The position numbers were made by a program, and so were the translations under genes. Source: Escherichia phage vB_EcoM_Alf5. From it: 64,000 nucleotides of DNA. The stretch lies in the sequence record KX377933; one strand, 5' to 3'. Positions 1 through 25,645 of the stretch are shown in pieces. How positions within the stretch are numbered: the stretch's first letter is position 1; every line of letters begins with the position of its first letter. Under the pieces are notes generated by a model. It worked only from the letters and a program-made list of their open reading frames with translations. It searched no databases and was not told the DNA's origin.

Positions 1-2367
1 ATGCGCATGGTAAACGACCACGCAGAAGTGATTAAGAGTTCAACTTCTTTGGAGACATCTCAAGCACAGATTACAATGACACCTGAAATGTTCAGCCTTT
101 TGAGTTCCGGTGTATACACATTTAAAGAAAGGGCAGTGATTCGTGAACTGTCGTGTAATGCAGTAGATGCTCAGAAAGAAGCTGGAAAAGAGAACATCCC
201 GTTCCATGTGCATTTACCTACTCGGTTTGAGCCTTACTTTGAAGTCCGTGACTTTGGAACTGGTTTAACCCATGACAAAGTAATGAGTTTGTATCTGAAC
301 TACGGAGCTTCTACGAAGAATGACTCTAATGACTACATTGGTGCAATGGGTATCGGCTCAAAGTCACCGTTTGCGATTGCTCAGTCATTCACAGTGTCTA
401 GCTATGTTGATGGTGTTGTTAATAAGTACTCTGTTTACCTTGAGAATGGTATCCCTCAAGTAACTAAGCTTACTACTAACCAAACAAATGAACCTAATGG
501 TTTAGCTGTACGTGTGGCAGTTGCTGACCACCGTATTTCAAAGTTCTTTGAAGAGGCTGGTCACGTATACTCATACTTTGCTGTAAAACCAGAAAGTAAC
601 ATTGTGTATGATGACGTGTTAGCAGATATGAACGTCATTGCCCGTGAAGAAGGTGTTTATGATGCTATGATTCATAAGCAAAGCTGGCGTTCTAGTGGCA
701 ACAGGACAGATTTTAATGTGGTAATGGGTAATATTGCCTACCCAGTTAATATGGAAGCATTACTTGGTGATGATTTCTTCAAAGTCTTGCCAGAATTTTT
801 CCGTAGGAGCGTAGACCTTGTAAACATCTACATGCCTATTGGTTCAGTGGCTATTGCAGCTTCTCGTGAAGCATTGCAGATGAATGATACGACAAAAAAT
901 GTCATCATTGAGGCTACCAAAAAGATAACTGAAGCAATTACAAGGTATGTTATTAAGGGGGTTAATAGCCAACCTACACTCATGGATGCTGCACAGGCTT
1001 ATGCAGAATTACGTTTGAACTCACGAGAAATGTTTAATGCTGTGTGTCCAAAGCTAGAGTGGGGAGGTGTTAAGCTTGATTCTCTGGAAGAAGAATTGCT
1101 AAACATTCGTCGTGGAATTATCTACGCAGAAGACGGCTCAGTCATCTATGAACGTGACGGCAAAGGCAATATTAAGGTTGACAGCAAAGGAAACAATATC
1201 CCTAAAGTTGACTACCTATACAATCCAGTTGCTTATGTTAAGTTTAACTCTTTAGAGAGTAAGATTCGTGCAACAGCACTTTCCTACACTCAAGAAGCAA
1301 GCATGTTCAATATCTTTGGTGCAATGCGTAAAAGTCAAATTGAACAGTTTTTGTTTGTTATTAATGACCGTCGCAATAAAAATGGTACTGAGAAGACTGT
1401 AGGCCGCAATCAGATTCTGCGTGGTGCATGTCGAGACTACGCCAACGAGTCAAGTTTGTTCCACAGATACAATGGTATTGTGTTTGTATTCTCGACTGAA
1501 AAAGAGTTAGATGATTTAATCAATCTACACAAACTTGATAAAAGCTTGTTAAAGATTGTGAAAATGTCTGATAAGGAGCACCATTACCAGCGCAAAGAAG
1601 CTGTAAGGGGTGTTGTAAAACTCTGGAAAGCTGTTCCAGCAGAAGGTGTAGCTTCCTATAAAGAGGTTTCAGAGGACTTAGACACAATTGAAGAACCTCG
1701 GCTTTACATTAAGGCAATTGGTGACACAGTTGATGGTGAATGTTTTTGCTCATCCCCAGAAGATGTAGCTAAGTCAGTTGCTAATGTTATTGGAAAGACA
1801 GTCTATGTTTTCCGAAAAGCAAATTGGAAAAAGATACCAGAAGACTGGATTGAAGTAGATGAGAAGCTCTTGAACGACAGCTTAACTGATGTTCATTGGA
1901 TTAATCATAACAGGTATATGACACGCATCTACATGAATGGTGTTCTTGACCTTACAAGTAGCTGGATTATTACCAGAAACTTTACGTTCAATAACAGGAA
2001 GATTTCTCGTGGCTATTGCTATTCACGAGACACAAACAAAACTATCTTCTTAGAAGGTAATGAAGATGCTGTTGAGGCAATGTTTGGTAAAATCCAATAC
2101 GTTGCTGCACCGTTTGCATACACTTACACTATCAGTGTTCTTCAGGATTTGAAGTCATGCCTTGACAATGATACAAAACTGTACAAAAAGATTAAGAAAG
2201 CGGGTGACCGCATGGTTATCAAACTGACAAACTATCTTTCAAAAAGAAAACAAGAAAACTTCTTGCTTTCTCATTTAGATTGGAATAAAGTGTCACCCAT
2301 CGAAGTGAGTAAGTTCTTAGGTTTTGATGTGAAGTGTGTTCCAGAAGGAACTACAATTTACGATTAA
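1..2367 (+). CDS. rIIA: rIIA-like protein with N-terminal GHKL-type ATPase fold
   Basis: 788-aa ORF; ELSCNAVDA, DFGTGL and GAMGIGSKS motifs resemble GHKL N/G1/G2 boxes; immediately followed by rIIB-like gene. Confidence 0.75.
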   Translation: MRMVNDHAEVIKSSTSLETSQAQITMTPEMFSLLSSGVYTFKERAVIRELSCNAVDAQKEAGKENIPFHVHLPTRFEPYFEVRDFGTGLTHDKVMSLYLNYGASTKNDSNDYIGAMGIGSKSPFAIAQSFTVSSYVDGVVNKYSVYLENGIPQVTKLTTNQTNEPNGLAVRVAVADHRISKFFEEAGHVYSYFAVKPESNIVYDDVLADMNVIAREEGVYDAMIHKQSWRSSGNRTDFNVVMGNIAYPVNMEALLGDDFFKVLPEFFRRSVDLVNIYMPIGSVAIAASREALQMNDTTKNVIIEATKKITEAITRYVIKGVNSQPTLMDAAQAYAELRLNSREMFNAVCPKLEWGGVKLDSLEEELLNIRRGIIYAEDGSVIYERDGKGNIKVDSKGNNIPKVDYLYNPVAYVKFNSLESKIRATALSYTQEASMFNIFGAMRKSQIEQFLFVINDRRNKNGTEKTVGRNQILRGACRDYANESSLFHRYNGIVFVFSTEKELDDLINLHKLDKSLLKIVKMSDKEHHYQRKEAVRGVVKLWKAVPAEGVASYKEVSEDLDTIEEPRLYIKAIGDTVDGECFCSSPEDVAKSVANVIGKTVYVFRKANWKKIPEDWIEVDEKLLNDSLTDVHWINHNRYMTRIYMNGVLDLTSSWIITRNFTFNNRKISRGYCYSRDTNKTIFLEGNEDAVEAMFGKIQYVAAPFAYTYTISVLQDLKSCLDNDTKLYKKIKKAGDRMVIKLTNYLSKRKQENFLLSHLDWNKVSPIEVSKFLGFDVKCVPEGTTIYD

Positions 2368-2446
2368 AGTGTTTGACAAGGGGCTTCGAAGCCCCTTAGA
2401 ATAGCCTTACAAAATGATTTATTAACTAACAAGAGAGAGTAATAAG

Positions 2447-3556
2447 ATGACTACTAAAACTAAAGCACAGATTGACGCAGAAATTTACGAACTGGTTAAA
2501 GAAGGTAAGCTGACTAAAACAGCTATTGCACAGAAGTTCAATACTTCAACCCGTTCAGTTGGTCGTGCTGTAGAGCGTCATGAAGCAACCTTAAAAGGTA
2601 AGAAAAAGGTAGCTTCTAAACCAGCTACGAAGACTTTGAAGCAAGTTGCTAAATCAGTTAAAAAGAAAGCTGACAAACCAGTTGAAAAGGTTGTTAAAGA
2701 GCCTGTACAGAAAGCTCCGGTAAATAAACTGCATGAAGCTATGCAGAATGGCAACCAGATTGAGTACATGATTACTGGCGACTCTGTTATCATGACTTTC
2801 GGTGCAGATTCTGAAATCGTTGAATCTACCCATCCGAACTACAAAGAAATCGTGATGGCTGTTGTATCAGGTGAGTATAAGAAAGCTTTCGAACTGATGA
2901 ACATTCGTAAGTCTATCGAAAACTTCACTCAGGGTGCTATCACCATCAAAGGTGACAAGTTATTCTACGGTGCTGTTGAGATGCGTTCTACTCTGGTTGA
3001 CCGTATTCTTCACATGATGAAGACTGGAGATAAGGGTTTTGAACGCCTTGTGATGTTCTTCGAAAAACTGATGGAAAACCCATCTAAAGATTCTGTAGAA
3101 CAACTTTGGGGATTCGTATCTCACCTTGATGTTGAAATTGATGAAGAAGGCTACATCATTGGTTGGAAGAAAGTCTCTACTCATGAAGGCAAGCTGGTTG
3201 ACTCCCACACCTACAGAGTACCTAATGATTTGGGTAACATTGTAGAAATGCCACGTTGGATGGTTGATAATAACCGTAACGTGACTTGCTCTCAGGGTCT
3301 TCACGTTGGTGCTTGGGATTATGTTCGTTGCTTCTCAGGTGATACAATCCTGAAGGTTCGTGTCCATCCACGAGATGTTGTATCTGTTCCAACTGATTAC
3401 AACGATATGAAGATGCGTTCGTCTCGTTATGAAGTTGCAGCAATCGTTGATAATCAACGTAAAGTGCTGAAAGAATGGGATGGCAAGACTGAAGCTTTGC
3501 ATGTCATCGTTGGCACTGCTGGTGAACTAATCTCCCAACGTAAACGTGAAATCTAA
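2447..3556 (+). CDS. rIIB: rIIB-like protein
   Basis: 369-aa ORF; C-terminal VHPRDVVSVPTDYNDMKMR and TCSQGLHVG segments match the rIIB pattern as I recall it; adjacent to rIIA. Confidence 0.7.
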   Translation: MTTKTKAQIDAEIYELVKEGKLTKTAIAQKFNTSTRSVGRAVERHEATLKGKKKVASKPATKTLKQVAKSVKKKADKPVEKVVKEPVQKAPVNKLHEAMQNGNQIEYMITGDSVIMTFGADSEIVESTHPNYKEIVMAVVSGEYKKAFELMNIRKSIENFTQGAITIKGDKLFYGAVEMRSTLVDRILHMMKTGDKGFERLVMFFEKLMENPSKDSVEQLWGFVSHLDVEIDEEGYIIGWKKVSTHEGKLVDSHTYRVPNDLGNIVEMPRWMVDNNRNVTCSQGLHVGAWDYVRCFSGDTILKVRVHPRDVVSVPTDYNDMKMRSSRYEVAAIVDNQRKVLKEWDGKTEALHVIVGTAGELISQRKREI

Positions 3557-5405: not shown

Positions 5406-5753
5406 ATGACATTTAAAGAGTTCTGTCAAGCTACTTTCATAATTGTTTTCTTAGTTGGGGCAGGTGTCTGGGGAGGATATTCTTACAGAGACTATCAAGT
5501 TGCTGAAACTGAGCTAAACAATCAAAAGCTCATAAGTGTTGCTAAAGATGCTTATCAGGAAGGATTAGTCACACTGAGCACTAATTACAAAAATGATTTG
5601 AAAGATGTGCTTGCTAAGAATAAGCATACAAAAGAGGTGCTAACATATGAAAAAACTAAGCCAGAGTTTTATAATGTTTGTGTTACTGATAACTATGTCA
5701 GGGTGTTCAACGAACAAAGTGAACAGTACATTCAAAAACTCCCAAGTAAGTGA
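5406..5753 (+). CDS. i-spanin-like protein (N-terminal TM, periplasmic coiled region)
   Basis: 115-aa ORF with N-terminal hydrophobic helix FIIVFLVGAGVWGG; overlaps next ORF in another frame. Confidence 0.4.
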   Translation: MTFKEFCQATFIIVFLVGAGVWGGYSYRDYQVAETELNNQKLISVAKDAYQEGLVTLSTNYKNDLKDVLAKNKHTKEVLTYEKTKPEFYNVCVTDNYVRVFNEQSEQYIQKLPSK

Positions 5754-5916
5754 GAGTGATAAGTACACTCAAGAAGAATCACGGTATATTATCAAAGGTA
5801 ACACTGGCAGTGACGTAGCAGCAGCCCTTGAGTTCTATCGTGATGGCTTTTACCAGTGTACAATCAAAGCTAATAACCTTATTGATATGATTTTATTAGG
5901 GAATAAGCAGCAATGA
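5647..5916 (+). CDS. o-spanin-like lipoprotein (overlapped with i-spanin)
   Basis: 89-aa ORF; signal peptide with lipobox-like LITMSGC; starts inside the preceding ORF in a different frame. Confidence 0.4.
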   Translation: MKKLSQSFIMFVLLITMSGCSTNKVNSTFKNSQVSESDKYTQEESRYIIKGNTGSDVAAALEFYRDGFYQCTIKANNLIDMILLGNKQQ

Positions 5917-6182
5917 CAGAGAATGAAGATACTTTTTACGTAGAAGGTTACTTACTGTTACCACGACCAAAAGAAACTTATATGCGAATTGATTTCTTAC
6001 CAACCATTATGGATAATGTGATGTGCCATATCTTTATGCAAGGTGTCACATCACAACTTAAGCATGTTGGCAAAGAGTGCAAAATAAAGGTTGACACTCA
6101 TCCAGAAATCAAAGAAAATCACTACACATGGTTCTTACCAGACTCTAAAGAAATCTTAGCAGTTCTTAAAACGAGGAAGTAA
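5913..6182 (+). CDS. hypothetical protein
   Basis: 89-aa ORF, start overlaps stop of upstream gene (ATGA). Confidence 0.4.
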   Translation: MTENEDTFYVEGYLLLPRPKETYMRIDFLPTIMDNVMCHIFMQGVTSQLKHVGKECKIKVDTHPEIKENHYTWFLPDSKEILAVLKTRK

Positions 6183-6925: not shown

Positions 6926-7711
6926 ATGGGTATTGTAAAAATCATCAAAGGTGATATCTTTGACGCATTTGATAAAGGTAAATTTGATATCATTGGTCAT
7001 GGTTGCAACTGTATGAATTTCATGGGTGCAGGTATTGCAGCAACTATTTCTAAGCGTTATCCAAAAGTATATGATACTGATACAGAAGTTTACCTGTTTG
7101 CAGGTGGCATTCGCCACAAACCCTGTGAAAATTTACTAGGTAATTTTTCTGTAACACGTTTAAAGCAAGGTCGTATAGCTAACCTTTATACGCAACTTCA
7201 TACTGGTAAAGATGCCCGATACAGTGCTTTAGAGTCATCTTTGAAACAGCTTAACAGATACTGTGAAGTTAACCAGTTGAAGAAAGTTGGTCTACCTATG
7301 ATTGGTGCAGGTATCGGTGGACTCGACCCTCAAGCTGTCACAGTTATCATCAATCAGGTGATGAAGAGTGTAGATGTTTATCTTTATGTCTACGAAGCGG
7401 GAATGTACAATGAGTTACATTCAGGTTGGAAGAACTACTGTGAACCAGAATACTTTGCAGGCGTAGCTGTGTTCACAGACAATGCAGTTACCCTCTTCAG
7501 ACGAAGAAAAGGTAAGACACATCAAAGTAACCCTCCGGTTGAAAAGATGTCTCTGAGTAACGCTCTAGTTACCCACCTGTCGAAGAACAATCACAGGATT
7601 GCAGTGACATTTGGCAGTGATGCGGATACTTATATCTATGCAAGAACTGATGAGGATATCGAGTTAATCTTCTCTTCACCAGAGCTTACCTTCTTAGACG
7701 CAAAGAACTAA
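6926..7711 (+). CDS. macro-domain protein (TARG1/Poa1p-like ADP-ribose hydrolase fold) with C-terminal extension
   Basis: GDIFDAF...IIGHGCNCMNFMGAGIAATI and GLPMIGAGIGGLD match macro-domain signature segments. Confidence 0.6.
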   Translation: MGIVKIIKGDIFDAFDKGKFDIIGHGCNCMNFMGAGIAATISKRYPKVYDTDTEVYLFAGGIRHKPCENLLGNFSVTRLKQGRIANLYTQLHTGKDARYSALESSLKQLNRYCEVNQLKKVGLPMIGAGIGGLDPQAVTVIINQVMKSVDVYLYVYEAGMYNELHSGWKNYCEPEYFAGVAVFTDNAVTLFRRRKGKTHQSNPPVEKMSLSNALVTHLSKNNHRIAVTFGSDADTYIYARTDEDIELIFSSPELTFLDAKN

Positions 7712-22626: not shown

Positions 22627-24042
22627 ATGAGCGAGTTATTTAAACATGCACACCTTCATGCAGGTCGGACTGAAAATGGTGCTGTAAACCATACTTCATC
22701 AATGTCTGCTCTGGTAGACTTTTACAAAGCCGCTGGCTCAAGCCGTAGCAATGTAGAAATCTTACCAGACCTGTTCTACAAAGCTTTGCATGAGGATGTT
22801 GATGTTGCAGTTCGTATTTTACTGCATATGCGAGATGTACGAGAAGGTATGGGTGAGCGTAAAGCTTTCCGAACTGTTTTACTTCAAGCAATTGAAGATA
22901 AAGTTTTAGAGCCTACACAGGTTCTTCGCATTATGGATAAGATTGCAGAACTTGGTCGTTTTGATGACTTCAAAATCTTCGTAGGTACTCGTTTCGAGAC
23001 GGATGCCTTCAAACATTTAGAGGCAGCATTACTAGACCCTGCAACAGCAGGTTTGGCAGCTAAGTGGTTACCACGAGTCAAACCACGTCATAAGCAGTTT
23101 GTAAAACGTTTCTGCAAGTTTGCCAACTTGAGTGAGAAAGAGTACCGCACACTGTTATCTGCACTGTCTGATACGGTTGAGCAAAAAATCTCTGCTAATG
23201 AGTTTGGTAAGATTGACTACAGCAAGATTCCTTCACTCGCTGCTGCACGTTACCAAAAGCTCTTTAACCGCAAAGATGGAGAACGTTACAAAGCTTACAT
23301 CGAATCACTCTCAAAGGGTGAGTCTAAGATTAACGCTGGTGCTGTTTATCCATACGATGTGATTAAGTCTATCAAGCATGGTAATGCAGATGTTGCCAAT
23401 GAGCAGTGGAAAGCACTACCAAACTGGATGGCAGAAGGTGAGAACATCTTGTGTATGACTGATGTTTCAAGCTCAATGTCTTGGGTGAATCTTGGTTCAA
23501 TCACTGCCCTTGATATTGGTGTATCACTTGCCTTGTATGTAGCAGAACGCAATACAGGTTGCTTTAAGGATGAGTTGATGGTTTATTCAACAAACCCTCA
23601 CTTCATTGAACTGAGTGGTGATTTACGAAACCGTCATCGTCAGGTGATGCGACACGTTGAATATGGCTCAACTAACTTACAGGCAGCTTTTGACCGCATT
23701 CTTGAGGTAGGTAAAAGAAACAACTTGACTCAGAAAGATATGCCAAGTAAGCTTATCATCTTCTCTGATATGGAGTTCAATCAGGTTGATGGAGCTAATG
23801 GTCGTACAAACTTTGAAGCAATTCAGAGTAAGTACAAAAAAGCTGGATATGAGATGCCACAACTGGTATTCTGGTACTTAGCAAACCGTAATGGTACTTG
23901 CGAAGTGTCTGTTAAGGATAACGGTGTAGCAATGGTATCTGGTTTCTCTCCAGCCACTTTAAAAGCTTTGCTTGGTGGTGAGAAGTTTGACCCAATCAGT
24001 GTAATGCTCAAAGCAGTAATGATTGACCGTTACATCTGGTAA
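22627..24042 (+). CDS. Ro60/Rsr-like protein (TROVE-like N-terminal region plus vWA domain with MIDAS)
   Basis: 471 aa; LCMTDVSSSM (DxSxS), downstream GSTNL and IIFSDMEF fit a vWA MIDAS; ERKAFRTVL resembles Ro60 TROVE as recalled. Confidence 0.55.
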   Translation: MSELFKHAHLHAGRTENGAVNHTSSMSALVDFYKAAGSSRSNVEILPDLFYKALHEDVDVAVRILLHMRDVREGMGERKAFRTVLLQAIEDKVLEPTQVLRIMDKIAELGRFDDFKIFVGTRFETDAFKHLEAALLDPATAGLAAKWLPRVKPRHKQFVKRFCKFANLSEKEYRTLLSALSDTVEQKISANEFGKIDYSKIPSLAAARYQKLFNRKDGERYKAYIESLSKGESKINAGAVYPYDVIKSIKHGNADVANEQWKALPNWMAEGENILCMTDVSSSMSWVNLGSITALDIGVSLALYVAERNTGCFKDELMVYSTNPHFIELSGDLRNRHRQVMRHVEYGSTNLQAAFDRILEVGKRNNLTQKDMPSKLIIFSDMEFNQVDGANGRTNFEAIQSKYKKAGYEMPQLVFWYLANRNGTCEVSVKDNGVAMVSGFSPATLKALLGGEKFDPISVMLKAVMIDRYIW

Positions 24043-24056
24043 AAAGTTTTAAAAAG

Positions 24057-24095
24057 GGTATTGACAATGTGTTTGATACCCTTTAATATGTTCTA
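24057..24095 (+). promoter_or_regulatory. sigma70-like promoter upstream of tRNA island
   Basis: TTGACA, 17-bp spacer, TAATAT. Confidence 0.45.
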
Positions 24096-24369: not shown

Positions 24370-24375
24370 GTTTTG

Positions 24376-24452
24376 ACAGAAGACCAATTACAGCAAACTT
24401 AATCTACTCATCTGACACGAAATCGGACAAAGAAGATATTTGGTCTGGTCAT
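24376..24452 (+). ncRNA. repeat module A: conserved stem-forming motif pair
   Basis: agaccaa (24381-87) pairs with ttggtct (24440-46); shared flanks acagaagacc and ggtctggt. Confidence 0.35.
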
Positions 24453-24536: not shown

Positions 24537-24541
24537 AATTT

Positions 24542-24610
24542 ACAGAAGACCGTTTACAGCAATATTTATTAAATTTTTAGCGGAAAAATTGAAAGATACG
24601 GTCTGGTAAT
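24542..24610 (+). ncRNA. repeat module B
   Basis: agaccgt (24547-53) pairs with acggtct (24598-604); same acagaagacc...ttacagcaa / ggtctggt flanks. Confidence 0.35.
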
Positions 24611-24936: not shown

Positions 24937-24963
24937 ATTTTGAGAGGACTATTTAGCCCCTCC

Positions 24964-24995
24964 CTTAAAGAGTTCTTACGAGTATTCTTTAAAGG
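24964..24995 (+). promoter_or_regulatory. hairpin with conserved loop GTTCTTACGAGTAT
   Basis: cttaaagag-gttcttacgagtat-tctttaaag; a second copy with the same loop occurs at 28346-28377. Confidence 0.4.
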
Positions 24996-24996
24996 A

Positions 24997-25072
24997 GCAG
25001 AAGACCAAATTCAGCAAGAACGTATGAAATTTCAAGCCAATTTAATTTTGAAAATTTAAACTTGGTCTGGCT
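24997..25072 (+). ncRNA. repeat module C
   Basis: agaccaa (25002-08) pairs with ttggtct (25062-68); degenerate copy of modules A/B. Confidence 0.3.
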
Positions 25073-25081
25073 CAACAAATT

Positions 25082-25218
25082 TACAGAAGACCGTTTACAG
25101 CAAAACTTAAACAATCTATTTCTCCGGTAAAGAAAAGGCGAAGGTTCGATTCCTTCACTCGGCAGATGTCGAGTTGGTGTAATGGTAGCACTTAAGATGA
25201 TAAACAACGGTCTGGTAA
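25082..25218 (+). ncRNA. candidate Y RNA-like ncRNA with permuted tRNA-like domain
   Basis: 8-bp stem agaccgtt (25088-95) / aacggtct (25206-13) encloses T-arm gaagg-ttcgatt-ccttc, hairpin actcggc-agat-gtcgagt and D-arm gtgt-aatggta-gcac. Confidence 0.45.
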
Positions 25219-25358
25219 TTATCTTTGTAGATAAGTTATTAAGCTTACCTGTGAGTATGCGACCACAAAGGGTGAAAGGGTAAATTCTAGATTTAAACCC
25301 AAAAAGGCACATCGCTACAGACCTTAAGCAAGTCTGGGTAGCTTATCTACAAAGATAA
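25219..25358 (+). repeat. 17-bp perfect inverted repeat enclosing ~105 nt
   Basis: ttatctttgtagataag (25219-35) and cttatctacaaagataa (25342-58) are exact reverse complements. Confidence 0.6.
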
Positions 25359-25364
25359 TTTAAT

Positions 25365-25606: not shown

Positions 25607-25645
25607 AAAGTTGTTGACATTGAGATGTGACTACTTTATAGTAAC
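25607..25645 (+). promoter_or_regulatory. sigma70-like promoter inside tRNA island
   Basis: aaagTTGTTGACA, 17-bp spacer, TATAGT. Confidence 0.45.

Follow-up and report, generated by a model that had tools for sequence, protein, structure and literature searches.

A rotated tRNA-like element in the tRNA operon of Escherichia phage vB_EcoM_Alf5 as a candidate Y RNA partner of a Ro60-like protein

The tRNA operon of Escherichia phage vB_EcoM_Alf5, a phage of the Felix-O1 type (sequence record KX377933; the window analysed here is a stretch of 64,000 nucleotides of this record) has the gene order Pro-Glu-Met-Asn-Tyr-Asp-Lys-Met-Ile, with a spacer of 428 nt between the Asp and Lys genes. This spacer contains a sequence in which the arms of a tRNA follow one another in an unusual order between two complementary ends, and the question is what such a sequence encodes. 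The original prediction took it for a tRNA mimic with a protein-binding stem formed by its two ends. In our view it encodes a stable non-coding RNA that belongs with the bacterial Y RNAs of the YrlA type, as a variant without the canonical CGAA motif; we estimate the probability of this reading at about two in three. Its most likely partner, judging from the combined analysis, is the Ro60-like protein encoded just upstream; the binding of the stem by a protein is suggested by the gene neighbourhood and by the analogy with Ro60 and its Y RNAs.

Structure of the element and its variation among orthologues

The features of the locus are listed in Table 1. All the parts of a tRNA are present in the element, in rotated order. 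The T arm, the acceptor-like helix, the tg linker and the D arm were each found where they had been predicted, and the long-range stem agaccgtt (25088-25095)/aacggtct (25206-25213) was confirmed in the sequence. The stem is longer than had been noted and continues, beyond an AGA/G internal loop, into an outer 4-bp helix (25081-25084/25215-25218). The AGA/G loop was also considered as a K-turn; this reading was rejected, the opposite strand having no GA when inspected by eye. The statement that no anticodon arm exists was wrong, as a hairpin with a 5-bp stem and a 7-nt loop, followed by aggc, abuts the T arm. The Rfam tRNA model aligns this hairpin as an anticodon arm at 22–22.6 bits, below the gathering score of 29. 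A helix CTTAA/TTAAG beside the D arm is predicted in the minimum free energy structure of the window sequence; by eye, it is not conserved in Suspvirus or Sf16.

Table 1. Coordinates of the proposed RNA, its paralogues and neighbouring features in the window.
Feature	Position	Strand	Composition or location	Evidence or remark
Gene for 471-aa Ro60-like protein, proposed partner	22627-24042	+		DUF2828 + DUF7788
Scaffold module 1, no tRNA-like insert	24374-24451	+	tRNA-Glu/tRNA-Met spacer	motif CAGAAGACCAATTACAGCAA at 24377
Scaffold module 2, short AT-rich interior	24540-24609	+	tRNA-Met/tRNA-Asn spacer	stem sequence same as module 4
Two conserved hairpins	24946-24997	+	start of tRNA-Asp/tRNA-Lys spacer	RNAalifold, 29 sequences
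Scaffold module 3, no tRNA-like insert	24995-25073	+		motif at 24998
Y-like scaffold module 4 with rotated tRNA-like domain (whole proposed RNA)	25081-25218	+		sequence, orthologue covariation, folding
5′ scaffold strand	25081-84, 25085-87, 25088-95	+	outer TTAC, loop AGA, inner AGACCGTT	invariant in Ounavirinae
Single-stranded motif	25095-25103	+	TTACAGCAA	motif conserved, adjoining helix covaries across DUF2828 loci
Anticodon-arm-like hairpin + linker aggc	25119-25139	+	tttct-ccggtaa-agaaa (25119-25135)	Rfam tRNA model alignment
T arm	25140-25156	+	gaagg-ttcgatt-ccttc	stem invariant, 100% paired, 17 distinct orthologues
Closed acceptor-like helix	25157-25174	+	actcggc/agat/gtcgagt, 7 bp, 4-nt loop	three covarying versions
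U8-R9 linker + D arm	25175-25191	+	tg (25175-25176), gtgt-aatggta-gcac (25177-25191)	
3′ scaffold strand	25206-13, 25214, 25215-18	+	AACGGTCT, G, GTAA	RNAalifold, covariation
Adjacent structured module	25217-25360	+	~26-bp closing helix	six double-sided covarying pairs between genera

The folding z-score of the element is only −1.55; hence, it is comparative evidence and not thermodynamics that sets the element apart from chance. In 17 distinct orthologues, 96.1% of the pair cells are paired, compared with at most 51.9% when the partners are slid, and RNAalifold independently recovers the outer stem, the inner stem, the T arm, the acceptor helix and the D arm. The acceptor helix, 99.2% paired in the same orthologues, occurs in three versions across three Ounavirinae genera (GTCGAGT/ACTCGGC, GGCGTGT/ACACGTT and GAAGGGT/ACCCTTC), with double-sided compensatory changes in three of its seven pairs. 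The compensation that the original prediction proposed to look for in related phages is thus present in the hairpin. The enclosing stem is nearly invariant within Ounavirinae and covaries among the paralogues and in other phage lineages. The T-arm loop carries a single G-to-A change, in Sf16, the D arm is invariant apart from loop position 20, and the tg linker becomes ta in the Mordin clade. The linkers flanking the T and D arms differ in sequence and length.

This pattern bears on the possibility of a protein-coding region. A minus-strand ATG ORF of 107 codons (24989-25312) does exist, several GenBank records annotate a 'hypothetical protein' here and the Bas63 phage annotation places two hypothetical CDS on the minus strand (bas63_0137/0138) in the region that holds the tRNA-like element. 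However, indels whose lengths are not divisible by three disrupt the ORF in the orthologues of Mooglevirus and Suspvirus, and conservation tracks the RNA helices rather than codons, so that a coding function is extremely improbable.

A T arm, an acceptor 3′ strand, a short spacer, an acceptor 5′ strand and a D arm would be met in this order at any junction of adjacent tRNA genes. The element might accordingly be a functionless, decaying relic of two tandem tRNA-Thr genes, with the 3′ half of one and the 5′ half of the next left in a spacer stem, as the drift of the anticodon-like arm and the loss of CCA in most lineages would allow. Against this, complementarity of the two acceptor strands is kept in all three of their sequence versions, the T and D arms remain essentially invariant while the linkers beside them vary, and independent lineages, known from phage loci numbered here L087, L106, L126, L158, L163, L166 and L031, keep the rotated arrangement inside the same kind of scaffold. 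A relic is therefore improbable, and the evidence for purifying selection on the element is already strong.

The anticodon-like arm behaves differently from the other arms. Among the orthologues, its loop has 6 or 7 nt and presents GGT, TAT, ATG or no 'anticodon' at all (CCGGTAA, CGGTAA, CTGGTAA, CTTATAA and CTATGAA); the 6-nt form is found in many Felixounaviruses, the window has C33 instead of U33, and in the Mordin clade the stem decays, with two mismatches. Because this arm drifts or decays, the element is not a decoding tRNA. It is the other three arms (acceptor, T and D) and the enclosing stem that are constrained, which upholds the earlier description of a tRNA mimic and not a tRNA gene.

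A genuine permuted gene for a decoding tRNA-Thr(GGU), matured by circularisation and re-opening at the acceptor end, as in Cyanidioschyzon merolae, or working as a two-piece tRNA, would explain why every part is present, and a GGU isoacceptor is missing from the normal tRNA genes of the window. ARAGORN names the un-rotated element as a complete cloverleaf tRNA-Thr(GGU), and in some GenBank relatives tRNAscan-SE annotation gives a 129-nt 'tRNA-Thr-GGT' with its end at 25164. In six independent lineages, among them the Mordin clade and several distant relatives, N-CCA is encoded directly behind the 3′ strand of the acceptor helix. This explanation is nevertheless very unlikely: besides the unstable 'anticodon', C33, the 6-nt loops and the Mordin mismatches, the ends form a 4-bp and an 8-bp helix around a 3 × 1 internal loop and not a bulge-helix-bulge (by eye, against the general definition of that motif), the same terminal helix is common to three paralogues without the insert, and the break at 26/27 is bridged by linkers of 23 and 14 nt. 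Moreover, E. coli is not known to have a splicing endonuclease.

The window version of the element encodes no CCA. In the Mordin clade, the acceptor loop is G-CCA-AACA. The 7-bp helix and the N-CCA of related RNAs make an RNase P cut in the acceptor loop, followed by CCA maturation, plausible. Cleavage would leave two RNA pieces joined through the acceptor helix and the scaffold, as demonstrated for Mycobacterium smegmatis YrlA. In Mooglevirus and Suspvirus, the acceptor 'loop' is only 2 nt long and the top two pairs are G-U; in these genera a hairpin of 5 bp may form instead and escape cleavage altogether.

Scaffold copies in the tRNA operon and beside DUF2828 genes

The scaffold enclosing the tRNA-like domain is one of four in the window. 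The motif CAGAAGACCNNNTNCAGCAA occurs four times (0.07 expected), always inside the same tRNA operon, and each copy comprises a 4-bp outer helix, an AGA/G internal loop, a 7–8-bp inner helix and the motif UUACAGCAA. All four fold alike, and both helices covary among paralogues and orthologues. The outer helix is TGAC/GTCA in module 1 and GAGC/GCTC in module 3, both of which have the inner helix AGACCAA/TTGGTCT; TTAC/GTAA in module 2 is replaced by TTGC/GCAA in some orthologues. In the two hairpins at the start of the Asp–Lys spacer, the pair 24971/24986 is A-U, G-C or G-U among the 29 sequences. The module at 25217-25360 has a conserved apical ATTCTAGATT, and its membership of the scaffold RNA system is uncertain.

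The operon has promoters at 24061 and 24152, and the next strong promoter is at 25614. The element probably belongs to the polycistronic transcript of the tRNA operon, from which the usual tRNA-processing cuts would release it. This location also suits a tRNA-like processing 'punctuation' element with no link to Ro, which would recruit RNase P and 3′ trimming enzymes to cut the Asp–Lys spacer, its stems blocking nucleases or taking part in processing of the tRNA precursor. Each of the three short scaffolds lies precisely within a tRNA–tRNA spacer, and a 7-bp acceptor helix with a T arm is a substrate determinant of RNase P (PMC4201824). Yet a nuclease barrier needs neither a conserved single-stranded UUACAGCAA nor the AGA/G loop, and the distribution of the scaffold in other phages, given below, speaks against a role confined to tRNA processing.

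The scaffold pattern was sought in 85 sources: the window, Bas63 and loci selected for their DUF2828 genes. Outside Ounavirinae, the exact Ounavirinae pattern gave only chance matches in coding sequence, and the wider family was detected only once the helix sequence was allowed to vary. With this relaxation, there were 123 matches on the strand of the DUF2828 gene versus 12 on the opposite strand; they come from many unrelated phage contigs, and the scaffold often encloses a tRNA-like insert there. A match lay at most 2.5 kb from the gene in 39 of the 65 non-Ounavirinae loci, mostly within a few hundred bases, and the motif UUACAGCAA is conserved across the DUF2828 loci. Loci L107-L123 have single scaffold modules of ~57 nt, 24–35 nt after the DUF2828 gene, and no surrounding tRNA cluster. 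The punctuation element leaves this adjacency, the strand bias and the closeness to the Ro-like gene unexplained, and we regard it as unlikely.

The tRNA-like domain itself was also found beyond Ounavirinae. A covariance model of the element, built from Ounavirinae only, gave full-length matches in L087, L158, L106, L166, L126 and L085, as well as in the TROVE-linked locus L031, the best at 63.9 bits (E 1e-11). Thirty-four of 35 matches were on the DUF2828 gene strand and the remaining one, in L031, was on the strand of its TROVE gene. The findings indicate that many of the uncultured phage contigs under study share this RNA–protein pairing.

The Ro60-like protein encoded upstream

The gene for the 471-aa protein ends 1039 nt upstream of the element, on the same strand. 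The protein matches the Pfam families DUF2828 (1.8e-29) and DUF7788 (1.7e-43), and gives no match to the Pfam TROVE model. DUF7788 is also present in the bona fide TROVE protein of L031, and both proteins are full-length members of PHROG 850 'RNA-binding protein'. In a Foldseek search of the PDB with the AF2 model (pLDDT 88, pTM 0.88), the top 12 matches were all Ro60/TROVE proteins (E 2e-8 to 8e-7, TM 0.48–0.65), with alignments spanning ~510–550 columns. The vWA-type DxSxS motif reads DVSSSM. As modelled, the protein has the HEAT-repeat ring and C-terminal vWA domain that define the Ro60/TROVE family.

Sequence searches starting from the TROVE protein of L031 did not reveal this relationship. 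Tblastn against the window gave no match, a misleading result, since a search of that kind misses a gene as diverged as the Ro-like one. The same divergence accounts for the tblastn search of 50,697 phage records, in which neither Escherichia nor Salmonella was among the ten commonest organism names of the 100 matching records.

The 471-aa protein is 98% identical to gp130 of Bas63, a near-identical phage and a model coliphage, in which the gp130 gene lies at the same place, upstream of the tRNA genes. According to the PhageMaP preprint (doi 10.1101/2024.10.10.617714), gp130 overcomes the Ppl defence system and suffices on its own, supplied from a plasmid or transferred to T7, for plaques to form again on Ppl. 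Hence, the anti-Ppl activity does not require the phage RNAs described here. The authors of the preprint noted the similarity of gp130 to Ro60 and guessed that Y RNAs might be among the 'tRNA genes' (doi 10.1101/2024.10.10.617714). The preprint names no RNA, and the candidates proposed here are spacer modules and not annotated tRNAs.

Under the favoured reading, an RNA of the YrlA kind, the paired ends would form a conserved scaffold that presents the single-stranded UUACAGCAA as the putative docking site for the phage's Ro60-like protein. The tRNA-derived interior should fold into a tRNA elbow and an acceptor/T minihelix. By analogy with YrlA, this interior would be recognised by tRNA enzymes or would act as an effector-binding domain, for instance for an exoribonuclease such as PNPase tethered to the Ro-like ring. 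It is in this sense that we infer RNA processing, a downstream effector and a role in counter-defence for the element.

The analysis names exact RNA candidates for a protein of the gp130 type, one with a tRNA-like domain and three without, whose shared scaffold motif differs from the canonical Ro-binding site. It also corrects the annotation of a sequence now labelled as a 129-nt tRNA-Thr or as hypothetical proteins, or left unlabelled. Whether a DUF2828-type Ro protein uses Y RNAs, and what purpose the tRNA-like domain has, can be tested in a tractable E. coli phage. The same is true of the cut by RNase P into two pieces, and of recruitment of PNPase by the ribonucleoprotein or its role in counter-defence.

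Comparison with Y RNAs and other known RNAs

The element resembles YrlA in the order of its modules: a terminal stem of the 5′ and 3′ ends (25081-95 paired with 25206-18), a V region, a T arm, a closed acceptor-like stem-loop and a D arm. YrlA has a 'V' stem-loop where the element carries the anticodon-arm-like hairpin. As with YrlA, a gene for a Ro60-type ring protein lies nearby on the same strand, within the ~4 kb taken as the criterion, and the element is accompanied by smaller paralogues lacking the full tRNA-like domain, as YrlB accompanies YrlA. Binding by Ro60, tRNA-type modifications and, in some species, RNase P cleavage with CCA tailing are further marks of YrlA RNAs. The acceptor helix, at 7 bp, matches in length the acceptor stem of M. 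smegmatis YrlA, which undergoes cutting by RNase P and CCA addition (Chen et al. 2014, PMC4201824).

The differences are also clear. The canonical Ro-binding motif GNCGAAN0-1G/CGAA is absent from the scaffold, whose 5′ strand reads CAGAAGACCGTTTACAGCAA and which has the UUACAGCAA motif and the AGA/G loop in its place; the sole GGCGAAG in the element is the V/T-stem junction (25137-43). The partner protein belongs to the DUF2828 branch and not to Pfam TROVE, the element is embedded in a tRNA operon, and the hairpin before the T arm is still anticodon-arm-like. The Rfam YrlA model (RF02553, gathering score 69 bits) gave no match at E ≤ 10 on 25075-25225. The positive control, L031, scored 20.8–40.6 bits, and the model matched the relative in L106 (4770-4880) at 38.2 bits (E 8e-5).

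A comparable phage system is that of Thermus phage phiLo, which likewise has a phage-encoded Ro60 ring with Y-like RNAs next to its gene (Yrl1/Yrl2); phiLo proteins (PDB 9KOP and 9L5Y) are among the best structural matches of the 471-aa protein. The phiLo Ro60 is reported to bind the phage Yrl RNAs and host PNPase, and a connection with host PNPase and with escape from host defence is proposed (PMC12135203). The RNA–protein binding is experimental in phiLo and proposed for the present element, and the phiLo RNAs were identified via the CGAA motif, with no tRNA-like domain described for them in the sections consulted (PMC12135203).

Phage T4 produces RNAC and RNAD, small stable non-tRNA RNAs from inside its tRNA region (PMC3014915, PMC9697503). 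Location in a phage tRNA cluster is the likeness to the element, and the RNAs were set beside it by description only. No Ro-like partner is known to us for T4. In the permuted tRNA genes of Cyanidioschyzon merolae and in two-piece tmRNA, the 3′ half lies upstream of the 5′ half. The element is similar to both in that the T arm and acceptor 3′ strand precede the acceptor 5′ strand and D arm, and in the RNase P processing expected at the acceptor junction; it differs in having no bulge-helix-bulge, no conserved anticodon and no tag reading frame. A tmRNA or two-piece tmRNA was rejected, as none was found by ARAGORN or by Rfam (E ≤ 10) and there is no conserved tag frame or ORF. A permuted group I intron-exon arrangement was also rejected, there being no Rfam intron signal (E ≤ 10) in the non-rotated sequence and, by eye, no G before the putative 3′ exon. 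Literature searches on permuted phage tRNAs, tRNA-like RNAs in phage tRNA clusters, Felixounavirus transcriptomes and DUF2828 returned nothing relevant.

The short modules can be compared with the Class I RNAs of Dictyostelium (RF01414). Both are RNAs of ~60 nt whose 5′ and 3′ ends pair into a short stem; (CC)UUACAGCAA comes immediately behind the 5′ strand of that stem, and its 3′ strand is often followed by CUG(U). The RF01414 scores, 17.5–20.1 bits in the window and 28.8–28.9 bits in L110 and L116, are all below the gathering score of 41.5. Kjellin et al. (2021, PMC7919456) describe Class I RNAs as found in Dictyostelia only and as partnered by an RRM protein. A bolder and rather doubtful proposal is that the four modules of the operon and their relatives form an undescribed, widespread class of phage Y RNAs, marked by the terminal helix, the 3 × 1 internal loop and UUACAGCAA, either with the rotated tRNA-like insert or lacking it, and with DUF2828 Ro60-like partners, gp130 included, to which the dictyostelid RNAs, sharing the terminal stem, CCUUACAGCAA and the CUGU 3′ end, would also belong. 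If so, Class I RNAs would no longer be unique to Dictyostelia.

Structure and conservation of the rotated tRNA-like element

The window is a genome segment of a Felixounavirus (Felix-O1-like, Ounavirinae). The element, here called module 4, lies in the 428-nt spacer between tRNA-Asp and tRNA-Lys, which is matched by 250 phage records, most of them with 95-99% identity. Almost without exception, these records come from Ounavirinae phages of Escherichia, Salmonella, Shigella and Citrobacter. The T arm, the closed acceptor-like helix, the tg linker, the D arm and the enclosing long-range stem of the original prediction were all located. The accompanying claim that no anticodon arm exists had to be dropped: a hairpin (tttct-ccggtaa-agaaa), followed by aggc, abuts the 5′ side of the T arm. 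In the alignment to the Rfam tRNA model this hairpin represents the anticodon arm plus variable loop, with a score of 22 bits, below the gathering score of 29. When the halves were restored to normal order, ARAGORN returned a complete cloverleaf tRNA-Thr(GGU). Therefore, module 4 holds every tRNA part in rotated order, the chain running from position 27 to position 26. Three-dimensionally, the hairpin may take the place of either a variable or an anticodon arm. CTTAA/TTAAG could form a helix at the junction beside the D arm, and no CCA is encoded in the window version. In the GenBank entries of some relatives, tRNAscan-SE has called a 129-nt "tRNA-Thr-GGT" with its end at 25164.

Features of the tRNA operon region and of compared phage contigs
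Feature	Position	Strand	Remarks
Ro60-like protein ORF	22627-24042	+	471 aa; Pfam DUF2828 and DUF7788 matches
Module 1	24374-24451	+	Short AT-rich hairpins inside; fills tRNA-tRNA spacer; UUACAGCAA motif
Module 2	24540-24609	+	As module 1
Module 3	24995-25073	+	As module 1
tRNA-Asp	end 24936		
Two hairpins	24946-24997	+	Open the Asp-Lys spacer
Minus-strand ORF	24989-25312	-	107 codons; annotated minus-strand CDS in Bas63: bas63_0137/0138
Module 4	25081-25218	+	Scaffold with rotated tRNA-like domain
Long-range stem	25088-25095/25206-25213	+	
Anticodon-like hairpin	25119-25135	+	
T arm	25140-25156	+	
Acceptor-like helix	25157-25174	+	actcggc-agat-gtcgagt
D arm	25177-25191	+	
Structured module	25217-25360	+	~145 nt; closed by ~26-bp imperfect helix
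tRNA-Lys	start 25365		
Replacing segment	25842-26287		~446 nt
ORF in replacing segment	25892-26290	+	132 aa
L087 scaffold modules	5520-6120	+	143-kb phage contig; five in tandem
L031 Y-like RNA row	1300-2020	-	183-kb IMG/VR phage contig
L031 TROVE ORF	2021-3523	-	
L085 tRNA-like gene	~7029-7143		Yersinia phage vB_YenM_P778

The comparative covariation check was positive. Among 17 distinct module 4 orthologues from Felixounavirus, Mooglevirus and Suspvirus, the acceptor-like helix is compensated across genera: it comes as GTCGAGT/ACTCGGC, GGCGTGT/ACACGTT or GAAGGGT/ACCCTTC, three versions with mutual compensation, and has double-sided change in three of its seven pairs and 99.2% of cells paired. 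The T-arm and D-arm stems show zero variation. For the complete proposed structure, pairing is 96.1%, compared with no more than 51.9% after sliding the partners by 1-3 columns, and RNAalifold independently predicted the outer stem, inner stem, T arm, acceptor and D arm. The thermodynamic signal of module 4 by itself is weak (z -1.55).

The anticodon-like hairpin drifts. Position 33 in its loop is C in the window, the loop has 6 nt in many Felixounaviruses, the "anticodon" of relatives reads GGT, TAT or ATG, and the Mordin clade, a subgroup of the Ounavirinae orthologues, has two mismatches in the stem and keeps G-CCA directly 3′ of the acceptor 3′ strand. Hence it is the acceptor/T/D "top half" and the enclosing stem that are under selection, not decoding. 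That module 4 is a permuted tRNA active in decoding, as its restored cloverleaf might be taken to imply, is highly improbable, since its anticodon loop is unstable and no bulge-helix-bulge motif is present. A minus-strand coding role is scarcely conceivable, as indels break the frame. Several GenBank relatives list minus-strand ORFs that overlap the structured RNA region as "hypothetical proteins"; such entries are probably spurious, since the 107-codon window ORF over the module 4 region shows no conservation in the other genera compared.

The four-fold scaffold in the tRNA operon

The window contains four copies of the 20-nt pattern CAGAAGACCNNNTNCAGCAA (24377, 24543, 24998 and 25084) against 0.07 expected, and each is matched by a downstream ..GGTCTGG. 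One scaffold fold is common to the four regions, comprising a 4-bp outer helix, an asymmetric AGA/G internal loop and a 7-8-bp inner helix (AGACCNN/NNGGTCT), with single-stranded (U)UACAGCAA directly 3′ of the scaffold 5′ strand. The outer helix covaries (TTAC/GTAA, GAGC/GCTC, TGAC/GTCA, TTGC/GCAA), as do the pairs adjoining AGACC/GGTCT (AA/TT or GT/AC). Only module 4 encloses a tRNA-like domain. The four modules are probably transcribed inside a single tRNA precursor, because consensus promoters (24061 and 24152) precede the first tRNA and the next strong one is found only at 25614.

Further structured elements lie nearby. The two conserved hairpins that open the Asp-Lys spacer, with pair 24971/24986 being A-U, G-U or G-C depending on the phage, do not look like an obvious terminator, since no T run follows them. 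In the separate structured module right after module 4, six pairs covary on both sides when Felixounavirus is compared with Mooglevirus/Suspvirus, and the apical ATTCTAGATT is conserved; the module has no Rfam match. The ORF of the 446-nt segment shows a weak HNH endonuclease likeness (Pfam E 0.0068, below cut-off). The segment replaces the tRNA-Arg(TCT) gene found at this place in phage Bas63, hence no tRNA-Arg was called in the window.

The Ro60-like protein and related RNAs in other phages

Some 170 nt separate the end of the Ro60-like protein gene from the first tRNA. The AlphaFold2 model of the protein (39 homologues; pLDDT 88, pTM 0.88) has only Ro60/TROVE structures among its best 12 PDB matches (E 2e-8 to 8e-7, TM up to 0.65), namely Xenopus and human Ro60, Deinococcus Rsr and Thermus phage phiLo Ro60; isolated vWA domains rank far below. 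PHROG 850, "RNA-binding protein", matches at full length both this protein and the TROVE protein of jumbo-phage contig L031 (IMG/VR), which was met incidentally via a T-acceptor-D pattern search and combines TROVE with the same DUF7788. With gp130 of phage Bas63, the window protein shares 98% identity. The anti-Ppl activity reported for gp130 is independent of these phage RNAs, and the role of the scaffold RNAs may be regulatory or tied to another RNP function.

At least 586 IMG/VR loci encode relatives of the window protein, of which 80, each with 5-kb flanks, were sampled for the scaffold. The scanners were simple patterns (for the scaffold, a 7-bp helix, then [T/A]NC[A/C]GCAA, then the complementary strand and a purine), with the opposite strand as control. 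Across 85 sources, 123 matches fell on the gene strand versus 12 on the opposite one. A match lay at most 2.5 kb from the gene in 39 of 65 non-Ounavirinae loci, the majority of matches there being a few hundred bases at most before or after the DUF2828-type gene. The scaffold motif and trailing G are retained, whereas the helix is free to differ in sequence (AGGTTCC, AGGATAG, AGAATGA, AGAAGCT and others). In Yersinia phage P778, which encodes a protein with 53% identity to that of the window, the scaffold copies are diverged and, by eye, have compensated helices (GGACTGT/ACAGTCC, GGATTC/GAATCC, GGACTC/GAGTCC). A pure processing element or spacer stem is an unlikely reading of module 4, as it leaves unexplained the conserved single-stranded motif and the strand- and distance-biased link to DUF2828 genes outside tRNA clusters.

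The T arm, a closed 6-8-bp acceptor hairpin and the D arm recur inside longer modules of loci L087, L106, L126, L158, L163 and L166. A covariance model trained on the Ounavirinae alignment only, with rough E-values, gave full-length matches in L087 (63.9 and 56.2 bits), L158 (57.8), L106 (54.2), L166 (42.5) and L031 (42.1); 34 of its 35 matches (E<=1) are on the DUF2828-gene strand, and the remaining one is on the strand of the L031 TROVE gene. By our own count, N-CCA opens 6 of about 16 independent acceptor loops (two in L106, one each in the Mordin clade, L126, L166 and TROVE-linked L031). That module 4 is a relic of tandem tRNA genes is very unlikely in view of the compensatory change and the recurrence of the arrangement in independent lineages.

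The L087 modules follow the DUF2828 gene directly and precede a tRNA cluster; three of the five contain rotated tRNA-like domains, and inner helices AGAAGNN/NNCTTCT replace AGACCNN/NNGGTCT. In L031, the positive control, Y-like RNAs downstream of the TROVE ORF start with GGTGCTGATAG... and finish with ...CTTGCC; at least two have the rotated T-acceptor-D core, one with a C-CCA acceptor loop. The L085 tRNA-like gene (GCGGGTG...D arm...T arm...CACCTGC, with a ~40-50-nt insertion by eye) received no ARAGORN call and may be a tRNA with an intron or with a long arm.

Relation to known RNAs

The sole other Rfam signal comes from the short modules and points, weakly but repeatedly, to the Class I RNAs of Dictyostelium (Dicty_Class_I_RNA); it stays below the gathering score of 41.5, with 17.5-20.1 bits in the window (24548-24605, 24382-24447) and 28.8-28.9 bits in relatives (L110 6410-6470, L116 4727-4788). 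Class I RNAs have a short stem of the 5′ and 3′ ends, a length of ~60 nt, a CUGU 3′ end and an 11-nt motif beside the 5′ stem strand (PMC7919456), which is CCUUACAGCAA by the Rfam RF01414 consensus. The phage short modules share the end-joining stem, the ~60-nt length, a (CC)UUACAGCAA motif beside the 5′ strand and, in many cases, a CUG(U) 3′ end. One phage group has the exact 11-nt motif, and the least variable phage positions of the motif (C..CAA) belong to the best-conserved ones in Dictyostelia. A true relationship is a lead of low probability.

YrlA consists of a terminal stem, V region, T arm, acceptor-like stem-loop and D arm, and has an adjacent Ro60-type protein gene and smaller paralogues alongside (PMC4201824). 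Module 4 has the same architecture, including the nearby Ro60-type protein gene and the smaller paralogues; on this analogy it is most likely a YrlA-type Y RNA, with modules 1-3 as YrlB-like companions. It differs from YrlA in lacking the CGAA motif and in escaping the Rfam YrlA model, for which the window had no match at a cut-off as loose as E<=10; the same model scored 38.2 bits (E 8e-5) on L106 4770-4880 and, on L031 as TROVE-linked control, 20.8-40.6 bits.

As a YrlA-type RNA, module 4 would dock on the Ro-like ring through its scaffold (internal loop and UUACAGCAA), and its tRNA-like domain would fold as a tRNA elbow and acceptor/T minihelix, acting as a substrate recognised by tRNA enzymes or as an effector-binding domain. 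PNPase is a candidate effector by analogy with the Deinococcus Ro60/Y RNA/PNPase complex ("RYPER") and the phiLo complexes (PMC12135203). An RNase P cut between 25167 and 25168 with subsequent 3′ maturation would be plausible, at somewhat less than even odds, because the acceptor helix has 7 bp and relatives encode N-CCA; on the other side stand the lack of an encoded CCA in the window and the acceptor loop of Suspvirus/Mooglevirus, which has 2 nt only. Both steps were shown for M. smegmatis YrlA (PMC4201824).

YrlA, phage Ro60/Y RNA pairs and the Ro60-like fold of Bas63 gp130 are already known. Judged by the literature searched, the new elements are concrete RNA candidates for a gp130-type protein, their location within a tRNA operon, a scaffold motif unlike the CGAA Ro-binding motif and an RNA type tied to the DUF2828 Ro-like branch in many of the phage contigs examined.
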